Origin: Shigella phage phi2457T | Sequence record: MH917278 | Length of the DNA: 50,219 bases | Reading direction: 5' to 3' (one strand) | Part shown: one piece after another, positions 3,107-40,537 of the stretch | How positions within the stretch are numbered: the first letter of the stretch is position 1 | Layout: each line of letters begins with the position of its first letter | Position numbers and translations under genes: made by a program | Notes under the pieces: model-generated | What the model was told of the DNA's origin: nothing | The model's input: only the letters and a program-made list of their open reading frames with translations | Databases searched by the model: none

Positions 3107-3595
3107 ATGAAAATTAAATTACTTTGCACTGGCGGTTACAAGGGCTTTACTCGCGACCTGGAATCTGACCCTATTATCGTTGACGCCGTGAAGTGCAATG
3201 ATAGCATTGGCGGCTACCGCGTCAAAGTCGATGACCTGGTTAAAGCTGGCGTGTACGATCTCAATTGCGGCCTATCGGTTAGTCCGGTATTTGGCCCGGC
3301 TGACTTCAACGAGAAGGACGGAACTATGTTCTTTTTCGATTGGGAAGTGCGGGCAAACATCAAGCCTCGCAAGGTTCGACTTCTCAACAATGGCGGTTAT
3401 CCTATGCTACCAGGTTATGAGAATCGCACATTCCCGGTTATTGTTGACTTTGAAGAAATAACCACACACTTAGCTTATATCAACGGTGAACAGCTTCATG
3501 CTGTTGGATTCGTGGGAGGTATGAATCAAGAGGCGCTGTGCTTCTTCCATCGCGAATCAGAGCCGTTCGATATTGAGTGTGAGCTAGTCTACTAA
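3107..3595 (+). CDS. hypothetical protein (162 aa)
   Basis: ATG with SD gagga 8 nt upstream; N-terminus MKIKLLCTGGYKGF resembles the paralogous family. Confidence 0.5.
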   Translation: MKIKLLCTGGYKGFTRDLESDPIIVDAVKCNDSIGGYRVKVDDLVKAGVYDLNCGLSVSPVFGPADFNEKDGTMFFFDWEVRANIKPRKVRLLNNGGYPMLPGYENRTFPVIVDFEEITTHLAYINGEQLHAVGFVGGMNQEALCFFHRESEPFDIECELVY

Positions 3596-3611
3596 GCACG
3601 AATTGTTAAAA
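3594..3611 (+). promoter_or_regulatory. conserved intergenic element copy
   Basis: aagcacgaattgttaaaa, hairpin ggggatt/aatcccc. Confidence 0.45.
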
Positions 3612-3660
3612 GGGGATTCGTCCTGACTGGTACAATCCCCACATCGACCACCAAGAGGAA

Positions 3661-4152: not shown

Positions 4153-4301
4153 TGGCTGCATGGGTATTGATTATCTTGATGAGCACCGGGCCGGATCACG
4201 TATACATGGAAAGTCAGCAAGCATGTAACAAGGCTCGGGAAGTGATTGCAGAAAACAAGCCGTTCGGATACGAAGTAAAAACAATGTGTGTTAAACGATA
4301 G
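4152..4301 (+). CDS. putative small membrane protein (49 aa)
   Basis: ATG overlaps previous stop (ATAATGG); hydrophobic N-terminus MAAWVLIILMS; stop TAG is the TAG of the conserved element at 4298, as for neighbouring genes. Confidence 0.3.
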   Translation: MAAWVLIILMSTGPDHVYMESQQACNKAREVIAENKPFGYEVKTMCVKR

Positions 4302-4316
4302 CACGAATTGCTAAAC
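4298..4316 (+). promoter_or_regulatory. conserved intergenic element copy
   Basis: atagcacgaattgctaaac, hairpin aaggcca/tggcctt with gatatagt in loop. Confidence 0.5.
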
Positions 4317-4381
4317 CTTCCGCAAGGCCATTTGATATAGTGGCCTTATTGAAGCACGGCAACCAATCAGAGGAATCAGCT

Positions 4382-4859: not shown

Positions 4860-5494
4860 AATTTGAATGCGTATCAAGTGACGGAACGGGATTTAAGTGG
4901 GGAAAAATCTACGAAGGCGCTCGCGTCAATAACGACAGCTTCGTTGTCGTGGATGAGCACGGTAGCAATGTGAACATCATCCGTCGTCACGAATACCAAG
5001 AAATTTTCCTGCCGTATGGCGGTAGTTCAAAATATATCTTCCATCGAATCGTGGATGGTGTTAAATTTAACGACGTAATCGAAGCAATCAACCAACTGCA
5101 TAATAAAGAGGTAAAATTTATGAAATTCGAATGTATCAGTGATAACACCAAAAAATTTACCGTCGGCAAAATTTACGACGTTCCCTCTGAGCACGCTAAG
5201 CACACGGCTGTAATTACCGACGACACGGGCCGCAACCGCATTGCAACCGTAACTCACAACGGCGAGGGTCTTCGCTGGAATAGCGGCGGCACTAAGTTTG
5301 CAACGTTCGGCAAGAAGCGCAAGCGCACTTTTTGCGTAAATGGCAAGGTTACAGCAAACAAGATCCACAACGTCAAGCCATCGGAAGTTGATCGTAAGCC
5401 AGCGACGAAGTTTGAAGAGAAAGCAGATTTGTCTGGTCTGGCTATCGCTCTTGTTCTCCTGGTCGCTTCTATTTCGCTGATGTTCATCATGTAA
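4856..5494 (+). CDS. membrane-anchored protein with internal tandem duplication of the paralogous small domain
   Basis: MKFECVSSDGTGFKWGKIYEG... repeated as MKFECISDNTKKFTVGKIYDV...; C-terminal hydrophobic segment LAIALVLLVASISLMFIM. Confidence 0.5.
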   Translation: MKFECVSSDGTGFKWGKIYEGARVNNDSFVVVDEHGSNVNIIRRHEYQEIFLPYGGSSKYIFHRIVDGVKFNDVIEAINQLHNKEVKFMKFECISDNTKKFTVGKIYDVPSEHAKHTAVITDDTGRNRIATVTHNGEGLRWNSGGTKFATFGKKRKRTFCVNGKVTANKIHNVKPSEVDRKPATKFEEKADLSGLAIALVLLVASISLMFIM

Positions 5495-5642
5495 TGTTAA
5501 CGGGGAATCGGCTCTGAACGGTTCCCCTTTCTTTTGGAGAAAATTCTATGCCAGACTTTGATAACTGGAAAAACGAGCCGCCATCATTTCAGGAGTTGCT
5601 ATTCTGCCTCCTGGTTCTGACAATATCTCTTAAGGGTGTTTT

Positions 5643-5861
5643 ATGGCTACTATCATGACAGCGGAAGATGCAGCGCGTGACGCAGTGGAAGGGATGCGCC
5701 CAAATACCTCCAGAATCGCACACTACTACAATTTTGACGTGTCGGCAGTGCAGCTGGTCCATGAAATTTTAAGGCTTCCACAAGTCGATTCAGCGCGACT
5801 GGTGACGTGCTTAAAAAATTATTTTTGCATCACTATTAAAACGAATAGCACGAATTGCTAA
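5643..5861 (+). CDS. hypothetical protein (72 aa)
   Basis: ORF track; weak SD; 3' end overlaps the conserved element. Confidence 0.35.
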   Translation: MATIMTAEDAARDAVEGMRPNTSRIAHYYNFDVSAVQLVHEILRLPQVDSARLVTCLKNYFCITIKTNSTNC

Positions 5862-5864
5862 AAC
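5845..5864 (+). promoter_or_regulatory. conserved intergenic element copy
   Basis: atagcacgaattgctaaaac, hairpin ggggaat/attcccc. Confidence 0.5.
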
Positions 5865-5918
5865 CTATCAAGGGGAATGCGCTATGATTCCCCTACACCA
5901 ACGAACGAGGGAACACTC

Positions 5919-6365
5919 ATGAAACATTTGATTTGCATTGATACACCTAACAATGAACACACCCTGCACGGCATTGGAATGTTCAAAGGCCACTACATGA
6001 CAGCAAGCATTTATGATGCGCATCGAGGCGATGGCGATCTAATGATTACTTCAAAAGAAGTTAATCCGTACATCATGCAGAATCTCGGGAACAATGAGTA
6101 TATGGCTTACGGCTGCAACGCGGTGTACAAGCATATCAAGATCCGCAAGCGCGTAGTTCGCGCATTCAAGAAGATTGCAATTAAATACTGGAAGATGAGC
6201 AAGAAGGACGCCGGAACATGGGCGCGTAACGTTGCTGATTCATACTTCTATCGTAACGGTGAGTCGTGCTACTTTTTGATCGATGATATTCATGACAATT
6301 ACGGCGGCTCATTCAGTCAGGAAGAGTTTGATAGCTGGGCTGAATACGAGATCAGTTGCTGGTAA
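5919..6365 (+). CDS. hypothetical protein (148 aa)
   Basis: Internal ATG (MKHLICID) after leader acgaacgagggaacactc. Confidence 0.5.
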   Translation: MKHLICIDTPNNEHTLHGIGMFKGHYMTASIYDAHRGDGDLMITSKEVNPYIMQNLGNNEYMAYGCNAVYKHIKIRKRVVRAFKKIAIKYWKMSKKDAGTWARNVADSYFYRNGESCYFLIDDIHDNYGGSFSQEEFDSWAEYEISCW

Positions 6366-6384
6366 TAGCACTAATTGCTAAAAC
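6365..6384 (+). promoter_or_regulatory. conserved intergenic element copy
   Basis: atagcactaattgctaaaac, hairpin aagggcat/atgccctt with gatagaa loop. Confidence 0.5.
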
Positions 6385-6448
6385 TTGCTCAAGGGCATTT
6401 GATAGAATGCCCTTCGTTGAGTTAAGCAACCAATCATAGGAATAAATC

Positions 6449-6982
6449 ATGGATAAAATTACCATTTGGGGTCAAACTATCAACCTGTTTCTCGGCACGC
6501 GACGCGTGGCAATCTTTGACTTTGACGGAACGCTTAGTGATGGATCAAAGCGCCTTCACCTGTTGCCGACAAAGGATTTGCACTTAACTGAAAGCTGGTC
6601 TGAGTTTAACCGAGCGGCAATATTTGATAACCCAATCCAGAGCACGATTGAGGTTATGAACTCTATGTTTGCTGCCGGGTATCACGTAATAGTTTTAACC
6701 GGGCGAAGTGATGAGGTTCGTTACGCATCTGAGTTATGGCTTAAGCATCACGGTGCGAGATATGATTACTTAGTCATGCGACCGCACACAGACAACAGGA
6801 AAGACACGGTGATGAAAGAAGAAGCGGTGCGAGCGATCGGTATTGAAAACATCCTGGCAGCTTGGGATGACTCACCGCAAATTATTCCATTATTCCGGTC
6901 GCTTGGAATAACAACATATGCGGTAGTTGACTATGGCGATAACATTCACGATCATTTAAAATCGCACGGGGTAGAGAAATGA
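6449..6982 (+). CDS. HAD-superfamily phosphatase-like protein
   Basis: Motif I FDFDGTL, motif II-like VLTGRS, motif IV-like WDDSP; resembles the phosphatase domain of polynucleotide kinase/phosphatase or a nucleotidase. Confidence 0.55.
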   Translation: MDKITIWGQTINLFLGTRRVAIFDFDGTLSDGSKRLHLLPTKDLHLTESWSEFNRAAIFDNPIQSTIEVMNSMFAAGYHVIVLTGRSDEVRYASELWLKHHGARYDYLVMRPHTDNRKDTVMKEEAVRAIGIENILAAWDDSPQIIPLFRSLGITTYAVVDYGDNIHDHLKSHGVEK

Positions 6983-7090
6983 ACCTATACGAATTTATTG
7001 CAGCACATCCGGTATTGACGGTTATCATCCTGCTAATCATCAATCACACCATCATCAATATGGCAAAATTATTTTTAGGGAGATACTAAC

Positions 7091-7663
7091 ATGAAAACAG
7101 CTATCATTTTAAACGGCGCTCCTGGAGCAGGCAAGGACACTATCGGATGCATCCTGGCTGACACTTACGATCATGTAGCTTTGCGCAGCTTCAAAGCACC
7201 AATGTTTGAGATTGCTCGGGCAATCCTGGGTGAGGCTAACTACGAGTATTTCATGTTCTTGTATGGGAACCGTATATACAAAGAAGAGCCAGATTCCATC
7301 CTGAACGGTAAAAGCCCGCGCCAGTTTATGATCTGGATTAGCGAGGAAGTCATTAAGCCACAGTTCGGAAATCGCTTCTTCGGCATGCGAGCGGAAAGCA
7401 AGGTCAAAGAATCAGACTCCCTTTCGGTATTTACTGATGGTGGATTCAAAGATGAGGTATTGCAGATGATTGAAGGTGATATCCAGGTCAAGCTATGCCG
7501 AATCCACCGCAAAGGCTGCAACTTTGACAACGACAGTCGTGATTATATTTACCTGGAAGATATGATCGGGGTTAATGGTTATCAGGAGTGTGATTTCTTC
7601 TCTGTCGAAGGTCATCCAGAAATTACCGCTCAGCACATAGCCGCTACGTTCATCAACAAATAG
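7091..7663 (+). CDS. P-loop nucleotide kinase (dNMP-kinase-like)
   Basis: Walker A GAPGAGKDT at N-terminus; size ~190 aa typical of small NMP/dNMP kinases. Confidence 0.5.
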   Translation: MKTAIILNGAPGAGKDTIGCILADTYDHVALRSFKAPMFEIARAILGEANYEYFMFLYGNRIYKEEPDSILNGKSPRQFMIWISEEVIKPQFGNRFFGMRAESKVKESDSLSVFTDGGFKDEVLQMIEGDIQVKLCRIHRKGCNFDNDSRDYIYLEDMIGVNGYQECDFFSVEGHPEITAQHIAATFINK

Positions 7664-7679
7664 CACGAATTGCTAAAAC
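7660..7679 (+). promoter_or_regulatory. conserved intergenic element copy
   Basis: atagcacgaattgctaaaac with downstream gatatagt. Confidence 0.5.
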
Positions 7680-7735
7680 GTCGGTGGGGTGATTTGATAT
7701 AGTTACCTCATCGACAACGAAGAGAGAAAATCGAA

Positions 7736-7945
7736 ATGATGGTATCAACTGATAAGTTTTTCACTTGCACTAAAACTTCTGAAGTATTCGAACTCGTTCA
7801 TACTGATAACGGTGATTTCATGCATGACGGTTGCGACGTTTTCATTGAAGTGAAAGAAAGCGACTATGATGACGGAGTTTATTACAACCCGGCAGTTAAC
7901 ACTCAGTTTTTTACACCGATCGAAGATGAAGGAGAAGAGGCATGA
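7736..7945 (+). CDS. small acidic protein (69 aa)
   Basis: ORF track; Asp/Glu-rich (DYDDGVYY, EDEGEEA). Confidence 0.4.
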   Translation: MMVSTDKFFTCTKTSEVFELVHTDNGDFMHDGCDVFIEVKESDYDDGVYYNPAVNTQFFTPIEDEGEEA

Positions 7946-29624: not shown

Positions 29625-29650
29625 AAGGGGCCGATTGGCCCCTTTTTTTA
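29625..29650. terminator. bidirectional terminator between convergent genes
   Basis: Hairpin ggggccgattggcccc flanked by A-run and T7. Confidence 0.65.
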
Positions 29651-30613
29651 ATACATGTTCGGAGTGAAAGGAATTGGCATTGAAATGTTTATATTGAAGG
29701 GGAATTGCGCTCCGCTTTGGGTGGAATAATTACCTACTCTTGTTCCTGGGGCGCTTCTCACGTTACCTCCGCTCATACACACGCCCTTGTATCGAATGTT
29801 ATTATATCCACCTGTAACTCTGCATATCGTACCTGTTCTTAGTATTGGGAAAAATCCACCACACCACTGCCACCCGTCATTTATCGCCATAGTCCCGCCG
29901 AGAACGAAGGGGCGTCTAACGCTTGAGAAGACGATCTGACCAGCAGGATTACTCATGGTTATTCCTGGCCCTGGGGGTGGTGGAGTGTTATTAAATATTA
30001 CGAGTTGCACGTATACGCTAGCGCCAACGTCATCAATCCCGTTATAGTTTGCATCCCTGCACCATATTGTATTGCCGTCAGATTCAAGTGTTACGTTTGG
30101 ATTATCCCACATACCGAAAGGAACGCCCTGCACTGGCAACTGAGCCTGACCGTTAACCTGAATCCCCCCAACAAATGCAGCGCTCATCAATCTGGCGTTA
30201 TTCGGTATAGCTGCGAAGTTCGTTGAATCGTTAACAAGTATCCCCTGATTTCCAGCCTGAGCGGGGAGGATTTCGTAGCAGTTTCCATAAAATCTCATCC
30301 TCCTTCCACCGTGCCCGTTAAAATTACCTACCGTTATTCGTCCGGTTGAATCATTTACCTTCTGAAAACTAGTCAAATAATACACCTCCGGGATGTAATC
30401 CATATCGTCTATGTAGATAGCCTGAGATGGAAGGCAAAAAGCGGTAGATCCTGGACTCATTTGCAGACCAAAATCAAAAACCGATCCAGATGAATCAACC
30501 CCGTCAGCCTGTATAGGTCCACACCATGACGGGGCGCGAAGCCCTGAAGTTATCTCCATTGCCGGGCGACCGTCGTTTAGGTTTATATATATTCCTTGCC
30601 CCATAATTACCAC
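29648..30613 (-). CDS. putative receptor-binding protein (T5 pb5-like role, inferred)
   Basis: 321 aa Gly/Asn-rich beta-type protein co-transcribed downstream of a lipoprotein gene, convergent with J; inference from arrangement. Confidence 0.4.
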   Translation of the reverse strand: MVIMGQGIYINLNDGRPAMEITSGLRAPSWCGPIQADGVDSSGSVFDFGLQMSPGSTAFCLPSQAIYIDDMDYIPEVYYLTSFQKVNDSTGRITVGNFNGHGGRRMRFYGNCYEILPAQAGNQGILVNDSTNFAAIPNNARLMSAAFVGGIQVNGQAQLPVQGVPFGMWDNPNVTLESDGNTIWCRDANYNGIDDVGASVYVQLVIFNNTPPPPGPGITMSNPAGQIVFSSVRRPFVLGGTMAINDGWQWCGGFFPILRTGTICRVTGGYNNIRYKGVCMSGGNVRSAPGTRVGNYSTQSGAQFPFNINISMPIPFTPNMY

Positions 30614-37066: not shown

Positions 37067-39085
37067 GTGACAATTAACATCAAAAAGCAAATCGCATTAC
37101 TTGGCGAGGACTATATAAAACGCACTCAAGAACGATTCACTGTTGGTGAGGTCGTTCCGTATCCGTACCAGGTTGTTGCTTATGCTGAGATCGCAAAACG
37201 CCTATCAAATTATGAGCATCCATTCTTTGTTAAAGCGTCAGTATCGGCGGGTAAGACCATCATTTTTGCTATGGTTGCAAAGCAGTGTCAAAAAATGGGC
37301 TTGAAAATGCTTGTGCTGGCACGCCAGGGTGAGATTGTCGATCAGGATAGTGAAGAGATCGACAATTTCGGGGTGACTAACTCTATATTCTCAGCGTCAC
37401 TTGGAATCAAGTCTTGCTACTTCCCGATCGTGGTAGGCTCTGAGGGTACTGTTGCAAATGGTTTAAATAATGAGCTAGCTGATTTTGTCCCTCACGTAAT
37501 CGGGATAGATGAATGTCACCAGGTGGATTGGGAAGACCTTGCACAAGCCATAGATGGCAAGGAAACGATGGAACAGATGCGGGAAGAGAAGGGAAAAATC
37601 ATTATGAATGGGGAGGTTCCTCTGATTGGTAATGATGGGAAGCCTCTACTTGGAACTAAGCGAAGCCAATACACGATCGTAATCATGGAAATGATGCGCC
37701 GCTGCAAAGAAACTCACGGTCACGACCTCAGAATATTTGGTATGACTGGATCTGAATTTCGTGGCGTAGTTCCTATTCTTGTTGAGAATCCAAAGGCGTT
37801 AGGCTTCTGGCGTGAGCGCGTTACTGATATAGACACCAACTACCTTATTGAGTTTGGCTCAGTTGTTCCTACTATATTCGGCTCGACGGACGGAGTTCAC
37901 TACGATCTTGATAAATTTAAGGCATCAAGCGAGGATGGGGTACAGGACTTTACAGAGAAAGATATGAAGGCAATGGAAGATGAGATCCTTCATGATAAAT
38001 CTCTTACTCAGCGAATCATGCAAATGGTTGCTAAAAAGGCTGAAGAGCGTAACGCAGTCCTGATTACATGCGCTGGGGTGCGTCACTGCAAAGAGGCGGC
38101 AGCGGCACTACCGCCTGGAAGCACATATGCAATTATTACTGGCGACACAGACACTAAAACGCGCAAGAAGATTCTTGATGATGTGAGGGCAGGGAAAATT
38201 AAATACACCTTTCAGGTCATGGCGCTAACTACTGGCGTTAACGTTCCAAACTGGGATTTCAGTGTAATACTTCGCAAGATAGGATCTCTCACCTTGCTGA
38301 TTCAGCTTTTGGGTAGGGGTATGCGACTTCTTAAATCATGGCAGGTTGCTGAAGGGATGGTTAAGCAAGACCATCTTGTATGGGATTTCGCAGGCACGAT
38401 GGATGAGTTGGGGCAGCTTTATTTCGATCCTATACTTGAGCAGGCTCAGTTCCAGAAGCGATTTGAGAACGGAAAAGACCCGAAAAAGTGTCCGAAATGT
38501 GGTTGCGTAAATAGCTTCTACGCTCGCCGATGCGTTAACGTTATCGACGGTGAACGCTGCGATCATTTCTGGACTTCTCAGATTTGCGAGGACCAGGTTG
38601 ATGAACGTACCGGGAAAATTCTTGTTAAAGGGTGCGGTGCCGAGAATGACGTTGTTGCCCGAGTCTGTCGCTGTTGCGATGTTTCTCTTGTTGATCCTAA
38701 CCTTAAGTTATCCGGTAAGGCGTACACTAAGAATGACTGGTACGAGGTCAAGAATTTTGAAGTTACGTTAACCAAAAACCAAAATGGTGTGATATACAAA
38801 TACACACTTATTAACGACGATGGTGATGAGTTCAAGGCGTATGAAAAATTCTTCCCTGAGTCAGACTCTAAGATTTGCGGTACGCTATGGAAAACGAAAG
38901 GAGTATTACCTCACGTATCAGATCCTAAAATGCGTCGCTACTTTATCGGAATGAAGAACGCTATCAAGATCGTGCAATACGCTCATCATATAGCGCATCC
39001 GGTACGCGTTACTCATAGACGCAACCAGAAGAAAGAAGATATTATTTCACGCAAAGATTTCGGTATGGAGGATATCCCGGAATGA
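37067..39085 (+). CDS. superfamily-2 DNA helicase
   Basis: 672 aa; Walker A SAGKT, DEAH-type motif IGIDECHQV, Cys-rich zinc-ribbon near C-terminus; GTG start inferred from ORF track. Confidence 0.75.
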   Translation: MTINIKKQIALLGEDYIKRTQERFTVGEVVPYPYQVVAYAEIAKRLSNYEHPFFVKASVSAGKTIIFAMVAKQCQKMGLKMLVLARQGEIVDQDSEEIDNFGVTNSIFSASLGIKSCYFPIVVGSEGTVANGLNNELADFVPHVIGIDECHQVDWEDLAQAIDGKETMEQMREEKGKIIMNGEVPLIGNDGKPLLGTKRSQYTIVIMEMMRRCKETHGHDLRIFGMTGSEFRGVVPILVENPKALGFWRERVTDIDTNYLIEFGSVVPTIFGSTDGVHYDLDKFKASSEDGVQDFTEKDMKAMEDEILHDKSLTQRIMQMVAKKAEERNAVLITCAGVRHCKEAAAALPPGSTYAIITGDTDTKTRKKILDDVRAGKIKYTFQVMALTTGVNVPNWDFSVILRKIGSLTLLIQLLGRGMRLLKSWQVAEGMVKQDHLVWDFAGTMDELGQLYFDPILEQAQFQKRFENGKDPKKCPKCGCVNSFYARRCVNVIDGERCDHFWTSQICEDQVDERTGKILVKGCGAENDVVARVCRCCDVSLVDPNLKLSGKAYTKNDWYEVKNFEVTLTKNQNGVIYKYTLINDDGDEFKAYEKFFPESDSKICGTLWKTKGVLPHVSDPKMRRYFIGMKNAIKIVQYAHHIAHPVRVTHRRNQKKEDIISRKDFGMEDIPE

Positions 39086-39498
39086 TTACAGATAAAGGCG
39101 ATTACTTAGAGTTTTACGAGCGAGATCCTAGCGACACGCGAAAGGAGGACGCTCATCAAGTAGACTGCGTGTCCTGGTTGAAATACAATTTTCCTCAGCT
39201 TCTATTTTGGCACACAGTTAACGAAGGTGAAAAAACAATCACTTCGGCACTTAGGGATGAGCAGGCTGGATTACTTAAAGGCGTATCAGACTTTGTTATT
39301 CTGATTGGTATAAACTCACGTTACCCGTTCGCAGCTATCGAACTCAAGCGGGTTAATAAGTCCGGCAAAGGAAAGGCATCACCAGTCAGCGATAAGCAAA
39401 GGGAGTTTCTCAAAAAGGTTCGGGATCGCGGTGGATTCTCTGCCGTTGCATACGGATTTGAGCAATTCAAGCTGGCAATATACGATTTAACGAAATAG
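39082..39498 (+). CDS. VRR-NUC domain nuclease (putative)
   Basis: 138 aa; ...AAIELKRVNKSGKGKASPVSDKQREFLKKVRDRGGFSAVAYG resembles VRR-NUC; ATGA overlap with helicase. Confidence 0.5.
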   Translation: MITDKGDYLEFYERDPSDTRKEDAHQVDCVSWLKYNFPQLLFWHTVNEGEKTITSALRDEQAGLLKGVSDFVILIGINSRYPFAAIELKRVNKSGKGKASPVSDKQREFLKKVRDRGGFSAVAYGFEQFKLAIYDLTK

Positions 39499-40279: not shown

Positions 40280-40527
40280 TGAGCGAAAAAATGGTTCCTG
40301 TTAAATTAACTGATCAAGGGTTATGGCTTCTTTATCGCGCTACGTGCTGCGAAATTATGGAGAGAAACGGATTAACTCAAGATGTTATTGGTTGCGATTT
40401 ATGGGAGTTTACAAGTTCTCTTGATATGTCGTTCGATGAGATAAAGAATAAACACATAGAGCATTGGCCTTCAATCATTCAGAAAGACGTAGAAGAACTT
40501 AAATCCGACACGATCTTACAGCACTAA
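40276..40527 (+). CDS. hypothetical protein (83 aa)
   Basis: ORF track; ATGA overlap with dam. Confidence 0.4.
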   Translation: MMSEKMVPVKLTDQGLWLLYRATCCEIMERNGLTQDVIGCDLWEFTSSLDMSFDEIKNKHIEHWPSIIQKDVEELKSDTILQH

Positions 40528-40537
40528 TTGCTAAAAC
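40519..40537 (+). promoter_or_regulatory. conserved intergenic element copy
   Basis: cagcactaattgctaaaac overlapping stop codon, then hairpin acccg/cgggt and tatagt. Confidence 0.45.

Follow-up and report, generated by a model that had tools for sequence, protein, structure and literature searches.

The closest described relatives of the genes considered here belong to two kinds of enzymes. The first are the polynucleotide kinase-phosphatases (PNKP), such as Pnkp from phage T4 (PseT; PDB 1LTQ and 5UJ0) and Pnkp1 from Capnocytophaga (4XRP). Both T4 and an Acinetobacter phage have their canonical fused Pnkp gene adjoining RnlA. In T4 Pnkp, the phosphatase nucleophile is D165 and the acid/base is D167, with S211 and K258 touching the phosphate and D165 and D278 binding Mg2+; this phosphatase also hydrolyses the mononucleotide 3'-dTMP (PMC3592404). 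The second are the deoxynucleoside monophosphate (dNMP) kinases, including the biochemically characterised Dnk from T5 (T5.043) and gp1 from T4 (1DEK). Here, we describe a cassette located at positions 6449-7663 of sequence record MH917278, from Shigella phage phi2457T, in which a phosphatase related to the first kind, lacking the kinase domain, is encoded upstream of a kinase related to the second kind. What we define here as the window is the whole stretch of DNA that was analysed, 50,219 nucleotides long. On balance, we consider it reasonably probable that this T1-like phage uses the cassette as an early module for salvaging nucleotides or shaping their pools, because of the family of the kinase, the contexts in which the phosphatase is found, the biology of these phages, the absence of a ligase, and the coupling of both genes.

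The first gene of the cassette (6449-6982, plus strand) encodes a HAD phosphatase of 177 amino acids which, as judged from its sequence, is a stand-alone member of the PNKP phosphatase clade with intact catalytic residues. The protein matches the Pfam family PF25109 (HAD_PNKP) over residues 20-163 with 62.5 bits (cut-off 27.6; E 6e-17) and PHROG 415 at 1.5e-66, and among solved structures the nearest by sequence is Pnkp1 from the RNA-repair complex Pnkp1/Rnl/Hen1 of Capnocytophaga (E 2e-7), followed by T4 Pnkp (E 1e-3). When the profile of the HAD family is compared by hhalign with residues 151-298 of T4 PseT, the match reaches 97.3% (E 2.2e-11), and in terms of fold the protein is closest to the solved PNKP phosphatase domains. 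HAD motif I, FDFDGTL, spans residues 23-29 and provides the DxDxT signature (D24-x-D26-x-T28). D24, D26, T28, R35, and T84 align with D165, D167, T169, R176, and S211 of T4 PseT, and R86, D119, K123, D140, and D141 with R213, D254, K258, D277, and D278, so that D24 is the predicted nucleophile and D26 the predicted acid/base. The clade has, in addition, its own 12-residue insert after R35 (LHLLPtkDLhlTESWsEFN; consensus LHLLPxxDLxxTESWxEFN), with H37, P40, H45, W50, F53, and N54 being invariant. Contrary to T4 Pnkp and Capnocytophaga Pnkp1, the HAD protein lacks the N-terminal Pnk kinase domain, carries this conserved insert, has no accompanying RNA ligase, and is found in other phages next to nucleotide-pool enzymes. 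The class B/C acid phosphatases (AphA, plant VSP) and the Pap proteins of P1 and P7 are more distant. Even though P7 Pap is a homologue of the T1-type HAD and the model for class B acid phosphatases is matched barely above its cut-off (28.8 bits versus 27.0), these scores are lower than those to PNKP phosphatases. Moreover, class B/C acid phosphatases are non-specific and secreted or periplasmic, whereas the N-terminus of the HAD protein is not signal peptide-like.

The second enzyme of the cassette is a small P-loop kinase of 190 amino acids (7091-7663, plus strand) with the Walker A motif G9-APGAGKDT17. This kinase represents a sister family of the dNMP kinases T5 Dnk and T4 gp1, and not of Pnk. 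It matches PHROG 139 over its whole length at 5.9e-45, the same PHROG in which T5 Dnk is found at 1.4e-51. Alignments were built for the family of the window kinase (A1) and for the T5 Dnk family, using members carrying Pfam PF21448 (A2), and their comparison by hhalign gave a match of 99.0% (E 7.6e-18) over 146 columns, pairing residues 1-144 of the window kinase with residues 1-201 of T5 Dnk. Both proteins share GxGKDT and, past the P-loop, the motifs SF(K/A)xP after strand 2, SPR, and TDxxFxxE; the SPR arginine R77 corresponds to R130 of T5 Dnk, and D116, F119, and E122 to D170, F173, and E176. The invariant positions of the family are N8, G14, K15, D16, Y58, R77, S84, E85, and K89, followed by D116, G118, F119, E122, G142, F145, D148, S149, and R150. 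The AlphaFold2 model of the kinase is very confident (pLDDT 95.4), and the highest TM-score in Foldseek, 0.68, is that of the T4 dNMP kinase 1DEK, the other top matches being nucleoside-monophosphate or small-molecule kinases, with no polynucleotide kinase among them. Identity is around 25% to the Dnk family at the profile level and 12-13% to 1DEK, and the window kinase is shorter than T5 Dnk (250 amino acids) and T4 gp1 (241 amino acids). PDB sequence searches with the kinase, either as a single sequence or as a profile, returned P-loop-level noise only and did not find 1DEK, so the link with T4 gp1 relies on structure and the one with T5 Dnk on the profile-profile comparison. In Pfam and NCBIfam, the kinase gave just sub-threshold P-loop matches, and none of the three cassette proteins had anything above cut-off in NCBIfam. 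A precomputed Pfam domain was present in none of 80 close homologues of the kinase, whereas homologues of T5 Dnk do carry PF21448.

The initial annotation had read the two enzymes as the activities of a PNKP split into separate polypeptides in reverse order, with a nucleotide-salvage pair as the more mundane alternative. The phosphatase half of that idea holds, by Pfam family, catalytic residues, and fold. The kinase half fails, since the homology to Dnk and gp1 covers around 146 columns, whereas the match to T4 Pnk is confined to the 25 residues of the P-loop. It is the mundane alternative that turns out to be the better-supported reading. The motifs on which the pair had been recognised, FDFDGTL as HAD motif I and GAPGAGKDT as Walker A, are indeed present in the predicted proteins.

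These genes and their annotations are already public and have been discussed in the literature, so that the finding itself is already known. The first gene appears in public records as "polynucleotide kinase", "3'-phosphatase, 5'-polynucleotide kinase", or "kinase", and the second one as "hypothetical protein", "putative P-loop NTPase", "deoxynucleoside monophosphate kinase", or "dNMP kinase". The pair has been treated as a polynucleotide kinase plus a dNMP kinase extending a nucleotide-supply or replication module (PMC11447400; PMC13164509). The label "polynucleotide kinase" is misleading for the HAD protein, as it lacks any kinase domain and the kinase encoded next to it belongs to the Dnk type. 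Hundreds of genomes of T1-like and other phages carry this label, or "3'-phosphatase, 5'-polynucleotide kinase", on a kinase-less HAD protein, which invites the inference of a counter-defence by RNA repair that is unsupported by the evidence presented here. The result mostly corrects and sharpens the annotation. What goes beyond the annotations checked is the misleading label, the natural fusions between HAD and kinase, and the presence of the kinase beside three unrelated phosphatase families. Regarding the experimental role of the T1-type genes, the literature search returned only genome-annotation papers, and a search combining RNA repair, HAD phosphatases, and phages found nothing. A paper on the retron Eco2 was discarded as evidence of the role of these genes, T4 PNK being merely a reagent there.

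The two genes are coupled, in agreement with the earlier impression that they work together. A local search with hidden Markov models (HMMs), on locus samples comprising the best 80 matches per draw, found the HAD gene upstream and on the same strand in 70 of the 80 IMG/VR loci fetched with the kinase family. The order in those loci is always HAD followed by kinase, with a spacer ranging from an ATGA overlap to approximately 2.2 kb, and the same order is found in the unrelated siphovirus K1G (Kagunavirus). In addition, two proteins among the best 150 kinase cluster representatives are natural fusions in which HAD_PNKP forms the N-terminal part and a kinase of this family the C-terminal one: P0215 (403 amino acids), found on three contigs, one of them a 60-kb phage contig, and P0231 (461 amino acids), found on one short contig. 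Coupling of a kinase and a phosphatase activity does not, by itself, show end-healing. It also holds within a set of lineages and not generally, as only 4 of 76 loci from diverse, mostly environmental phages have a HAD gene near the kinase, all four being Drexler-like. The kinase representatives were traced through their own contigs, but most of these were short and revealed little.

T1 and TLS degrade the host DNA, re-use its nucleotides, and encode no DNA polymerase (PMC11447400). In a salvage or pool-shaping module of such a phage, the kinase would use the gamma-phosphate of ATP to convert 5'-dNMPs into deoxynucleoside diphosphates (dNDPs), by means of its P-loop (K15 and D16) and the arginines R77 and R150, and the host Ndk would then turn the dNDPs into deoxynucleoside triphosphates (dNTPs) that the host polymerase uses in replication. 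The HAD protein would act as a Mg2+-dependent acyl-phosphatase through an aspartyl-phosphate on D24, most likely stripping phosphate monoesters from either (deoxy)nucleotides or short products of breakdown. Its candidate substrates would be the 3'-phosphates of 3'-dNMPs, 3',5'-bisphosphates, and 3'-phosphorylated fragment ends, and in this way breakdown products would be directed toward 5'-dNMPs or unwanted nucleotides would be eliminated. We infer these substrates, as well as the 3' versus 5' specificity of the HAD protein and the order of the two reactions. The characterised members of the PNKP clade are 3'-specific, unlike the T5 Dmp, YfbR, and NT5C nucleotidases, and a 3'-specific activity would feed the kinase instead of opposing it, so that the fusions would make sense. 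Nucleotides or short breakdown products are thus most plausibly the targets of the HAD protein, rather than RNA under repair.

The genomic neighbourhoods of both families fit this proposal. On a 145-kb myovirus contig, the kinase gene overlaps that of a YfbR-like HD 5'-deoxynucleotidase and precedes ThyX, with a ribonucleotide reductase and a DNA ligase close by. In locus L137 it overlaps the gene of a second YfbR-like protein, in L098 that of an NT5C-type HAD 5'-deoxynucleotidase (43.7 bits; cut-off 24.8), and in two unrelated representatives it follows a dCMP deaminase. The kinase gene overlaps or abuts phosphatase genes of three unrelated families, namely HAD_PNKP here, YfbR-like HD in L008 and L137, and NT5C-type HAD in L098. 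A comparable pairing is that of T5 Dmp, a 5'-dNMPase, with Dnk; both are encoded in the T5 record, where, by its annotation, the two genes are distant from each other and differ in their phase of expression. The recurrence of the kinase beside three unrelated phosphatase families, and its fusion to one of them, suggests a general logic for the reshaping of deoxynucleotide pools by phages. As for the HAD gene on its own, in the T4-like Krischvirus TB34 (Escherichia phage vB_Eco_TB34, L092 3998-4474) a stand-alone copy of the T1 type overlaps the end of nrdB; the same genome encodes, at a distance of a few kilobases, a canonical PseT as well as RNA ligase A, and its record shows two matching places for the HAD query. 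In the Dickeya phage BF25/12 (Autographiviridae, L180 2498-3360), the HAD gene is preceded by genes for a metallophosphoesterase and a 191-amino acid protein and overlaps (ATGA) the gene of a MazZ-like dATP/dGTP diphosphohydrolase, this 128-amino acid neighbour matching the N-terminal domain of dATP/dGTP diphosphohydrolase PF18909 at 9.5e-35. This arrangement may represent a cluster for dNTP-pool editing.

Several other observations were made in these neighbourhoods. Among the 134 neighbours of 42 non-redundant kinase loci, the top families were glycosyltransferases (14), WYL_2 (12), and SegE-type GIY-YIG endonucleases (10). In 14 of the 42 loci, from environmental phages within the range L098-L177 (for example, L158 6406-7365, L165 3910-4860, and L167 5921-6871), a group-1 glycosyltransferase of around 317 amino acids is encoded one or two genes downstream of the Dnk-like kinase, often with a WYL_2 protein of around 80 amino acids just upstream. 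This arrangement resembles that of T4 gp1 with the DNA glucosyltransferases and, by this analogy, may point to DNA with modified bases. The Pantoea phage vB_PagM_LIET2 (L182 2468-3340) shows another non-canonical architecture: its 290-amino acid "polynucleotide 5' kinase/3' phosphatase" has an N-terminal HAD_PNKP domain (residues 12-157), followed by a C-terminal extension of around 130 amino acids that matches neither of the kinase HMMs used. The "nucleotide kinase" encoded beside the HAD gene in the Klebsiella phage YMC16/01/N133 was considered as a second, unrelated dNMP kinase partner and rejected, since it shares with T7 gp1.7 only a DUF3310 segment (pairwise E 0.003).

A number of points weigh against a salvage or pool-shaping role. 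The nearest relatives of the HAD protein, both by sequence and by fold, all act on polynucleotide ends. The kinase has DGGF where Dnk has DVRF, its G118 taking the place of the invariant R172 of Dnk, and its C-terminal motif FxxDSR (F145..D148-S149-R150) replaces the HxSE of Dnk; therefore, the acceptor could differ. The Pfam model PF21448 (DNMK) is not matched by the kinase at E<=1. If the phosphatase and the kinase both used the same 5'-dNMPs, a futile cycle would result, so a fusion would only be sensible if the specificities of the two differ. Arguments from neighbourhoods carry little weight in phage replication modules, given that many enzymes of DNA and nucleotide metabolism gather there in any case. 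In 3 of approximately 42 diverse loci the kinase directly abuts a ligase, either a DNA ligase (L065 and L172) or a PF09414 RNA ligase (L125). Finally, the literature found gives no assay of any member of the kinase family or of the stand-alone HAD clade.

The first alternative, which we regard as unlikely, is that the two genes have independent functions and happen to be adjacent: a dNMP kinase for salvage, and a HAD protein acting as a DNA 3'-phosphatase that would unblock 3'-phosphate ends of host fragments or phage DNA, either for exonucleolytic breakdown or for repair by the host Pol I and LigA. These are exactly the activities suggested by the closest characterised relatives of each protein. 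The HAD gene is found without the kinase in P7 (as Pap), Krischvirus, Stompvirus, and Casjensviridae, the kinase is widespread without the HAD gene, and the spacer between both tolerates lengths from 0 to approximately 2.2 kb as well as HNH insertions. However, the natural fusions and the frequent ATGA overlaps argue for a stoichiometric co-function, and the contexts of the stand-alone HAD genes are those of nucleotide-pool enzymes, not of DNA repair.

Less likely still would be a split end-healing enzyme in reverse order, where the HAD protein removes 3'-phosphates or 2',3'-cyclic phosphates and the Dnk-like kinase, as a non-orthologous displacement of the T4-type Pnk domain, phosphorylates 5'-OH ends. 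A host ligase (LigA in the case of DNA) would then do the sealing, and the system would counter nucleases that leave 3'-phosphate/5'-OH ends. Just as unlikely is the version in which the HAD protein and the Dnk-like kinase form a reverse-order PNK-phosphatase that exists as separate proteins in T1-like phages and as a fusion in some uncultured ones, and that would heal 3'-phosphate/5'-OH breaks, most plausibly those in DNA. The PNKP-type sequence, catalytic residues, and fold of the HAD protein would suit such a role, and so would the fusion of the two activities in one polypeptide in some phages, in the reverse order to Pnkp, the tight and conserved synteny of the pair, the lineages in which the kinase abuts a ligase, and the position of the pair in Kagunavirus K1G, where it follows a gene for a "DNA repair exonuclease". 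Against this, the kinase has the acceptor-side motifs of dNMP kinases. The position after strand 2 at which hydroxyl-kinases have their general-base Asp (Asp35 in T4) is occupied by S-F-K in the family of the window kinase, as in Dnk. No partner ligase was found either: none is annotated in the close relative LeonhardEuler, 10 unassigned ORFs (open reading frames) of the window have no ligase match in Pfam, and phmmer searches of the six-frame translation with T4 RnlA, two phage DNA ligases, and a PF09414 RNA ligase returned nothing. The E. coli RNA ligase RtcB needs unhealed 3'-phosphate/5'-OH ends, and healing of RNA in a phage lacking its own Rnl would be counter-productive because RtcB joins the ends that have not been healed. 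Canonical Pnkp is kept beside RnlA, and TB34 has its additional T1-type HAD gene beside nrdB. In diverse environmental phages, moreover, the kinase almost never has the HAD gene nearby (the 4 of 76 loci mentioned above). The counter-defence against tRNA anticodon nucleases that had been proposed for the cassette depends on this RNA-repair inference, which does not find support here. If end-healing were true, it would represent a new nucleic-acid repair architecture in phage-host conflicts, where a dNMP-kinase scaffold would have been recruited to phosphorylate polynucleotide ends, providing a ligase-less counter-measure against host nucleases.

Very improbable is a counter-defence directed at some phosphorylated target, small or terminal, that is not a DNA precursor, such as clearing the 3'-(pyro)phosphate marks left on tRNA CCA ends (toxSAS/CapRel-type) or destroying or re-phosphorylating nucleotide immune signals: the early location in a small unit of its own bracketed by repeated elements, like that of many accessory or anti-defence genes, the patchiness of both families across unrelated phage lineages, and the conserved HAD insert, which lies beside the active site, is rich in His, Trp, and Phe, and hints at a specific substrate, would be consistent with it, but no result ties either gene to a defence system, all the informative neighbourhoods are those of nucleotide or DNA metabolism, and the link to particular defence systems is our own speculation.

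Returning to the salvage or pool-shaping module that we favour, its layout is compact. Between the two enzymes, a micro-ORF (6979-7089, plus strand) encodes a hydrophobic product of 36 amino acids, MNLYEFIAAHPVLTVIILLIINHTIINMAKLFLGRY. Its ATG overlaps the stop codon of the HAD gene as ATGA and the kinase gene begins 1 nucleotide past the stop codon of the micro-ORF; the three ORFs, all on the plus strand, are translationally coupled. The ORF listing places them at the coordinates and on the strand originally reported. The cassette ORFs are judged to be real genes and not chance ORFs, because of family matches far above chance, widespread homologues, and the codon-position pattern of the micro-ORF. 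The HAD gene is present in 2868 phage records and the kinase gene in 1433, and a search of the metagenome library with the kinase gave 4375 cluster representatives at E<=1e-3.

The micro-ORF, which the initial annotation had offered as a possible one, is probably real and translated into a small hydrophobic protein, because its variable sites concentrate at third codon positions. Across 12 distinct Tunavirus copies, these sites are distributed 6/3/15 by codon position, and 15 codons vary synonymously only versus 5 with amino-acid changes. No family match was found for it in Pfam, PHROG, or NCBIfam. It is limited to part of Tunavirus, and in other genera the HAD gene abuts or overlaps the kinase gene; the micro-ORF is thus lineage-restricted and dispensable for the module. 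The possibility of a remnant of a fusion linker was rejected, since the linkers of P0215 and P0231 are hydrophilic and unrelated, and only some Tunavirus phages have the micro-ORF. In T1 (L017, IMG/VR 638276017, 5465-5959), as well as in L012 and L015, the junction holds a gene for a 164-amino acid protein resembling HNH homing endonucleases, which in T1 occupies the place of the micro-ORF between HAD and kinase. The HAD-kinase junction appears to be an insertion hot spot.

The cassette is flanked by two copies of a repeated element, both on the plus strand. The upstream copy (6367-6414) consists of the box AGCACTAATTGCTAAAAC at 6367-6384 and a hairpin with the stems AAGGGCAT/ATGCCCTT at 6391-6414, whose loop holds the extended -10-like sequence TGATAGAAT; the downstream copy (7662-7709) has its box at 7662-7679 and its hairpin at 7686-7709. 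In general, the element is intergenic, around 55 nucleotides long, and located in the early region, with an invariant box AGCACNAATTGYTAAAAC (AGCAC(G/T)AATTG(C/T)TAAAAC when its variants are included) and, after it, a hairpin whose covarying stems enclose a TATAGT-like loop. Boxes on the plus strand are found at approximately 1796-1813, 4300-4317, 5847-5864, 6367-6384, 7662-7679, and 40520-40537, with a weaker one at 3595-3612. The hairpin lies around 6-7 nucleotides downstream of each box, and its loop holds TG-n-TATAGT or TAGAAT. When the seven copies are aligned, 5 of the 8 hairpin pairs show compensatory changes, so that the sequence of the stem varies and its complementarity is kept. At 22 nucleotides, the spacing between the box and TATAGT exceeds what a standard sigma-70 -35/-10 pair allows, and a generic scan for sigma-70 promoters and terminators around the cassette gave background levels and did not call the element. 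The element may be a phage-specific promoter, a regulator site, or an RNA processing signal, and its upstream copy would probably be the cassette's own promoter or regulatory site. At the downstream copy the next transcription unit starts, and this copy thus delimits the three-gene cassette; the bracketing by two copies suggests that the cassette is a transcription unit of its own.

Regarding the rest of the window, a megablast search with the region 6300-7800 matched 117 phage records, all of them from Tunavirus/Drexlerviridae (T1-like) phages of approximately 50 kb, the top match being Shigella phage Sfin-3 with 98.4% identity across the whole query, and by these matches the window is considered to be essentially one complete T1-like (Tunavirus) genome. 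Neither tRNA genes nor, at the gathering threshold, Rfam families were found in the whole window. Among its otherwise unassigned ORFs, a VRR-NUC nuclease is encoded at 39082-39498 and a DUF6453 protein at 29648-30613 on the minus strand. Upstream of the cassette, the ORF at 5877-6365 (162 amino acids) starts inside another copy of the repeated element (box 5847-5864, hairpin approximately 5871-5894). Its homologue in phiL is annotated 14 codons shorter, with 148 amino acids, and the true start of this ORF is probably the internal ATG (MKHLICID...).

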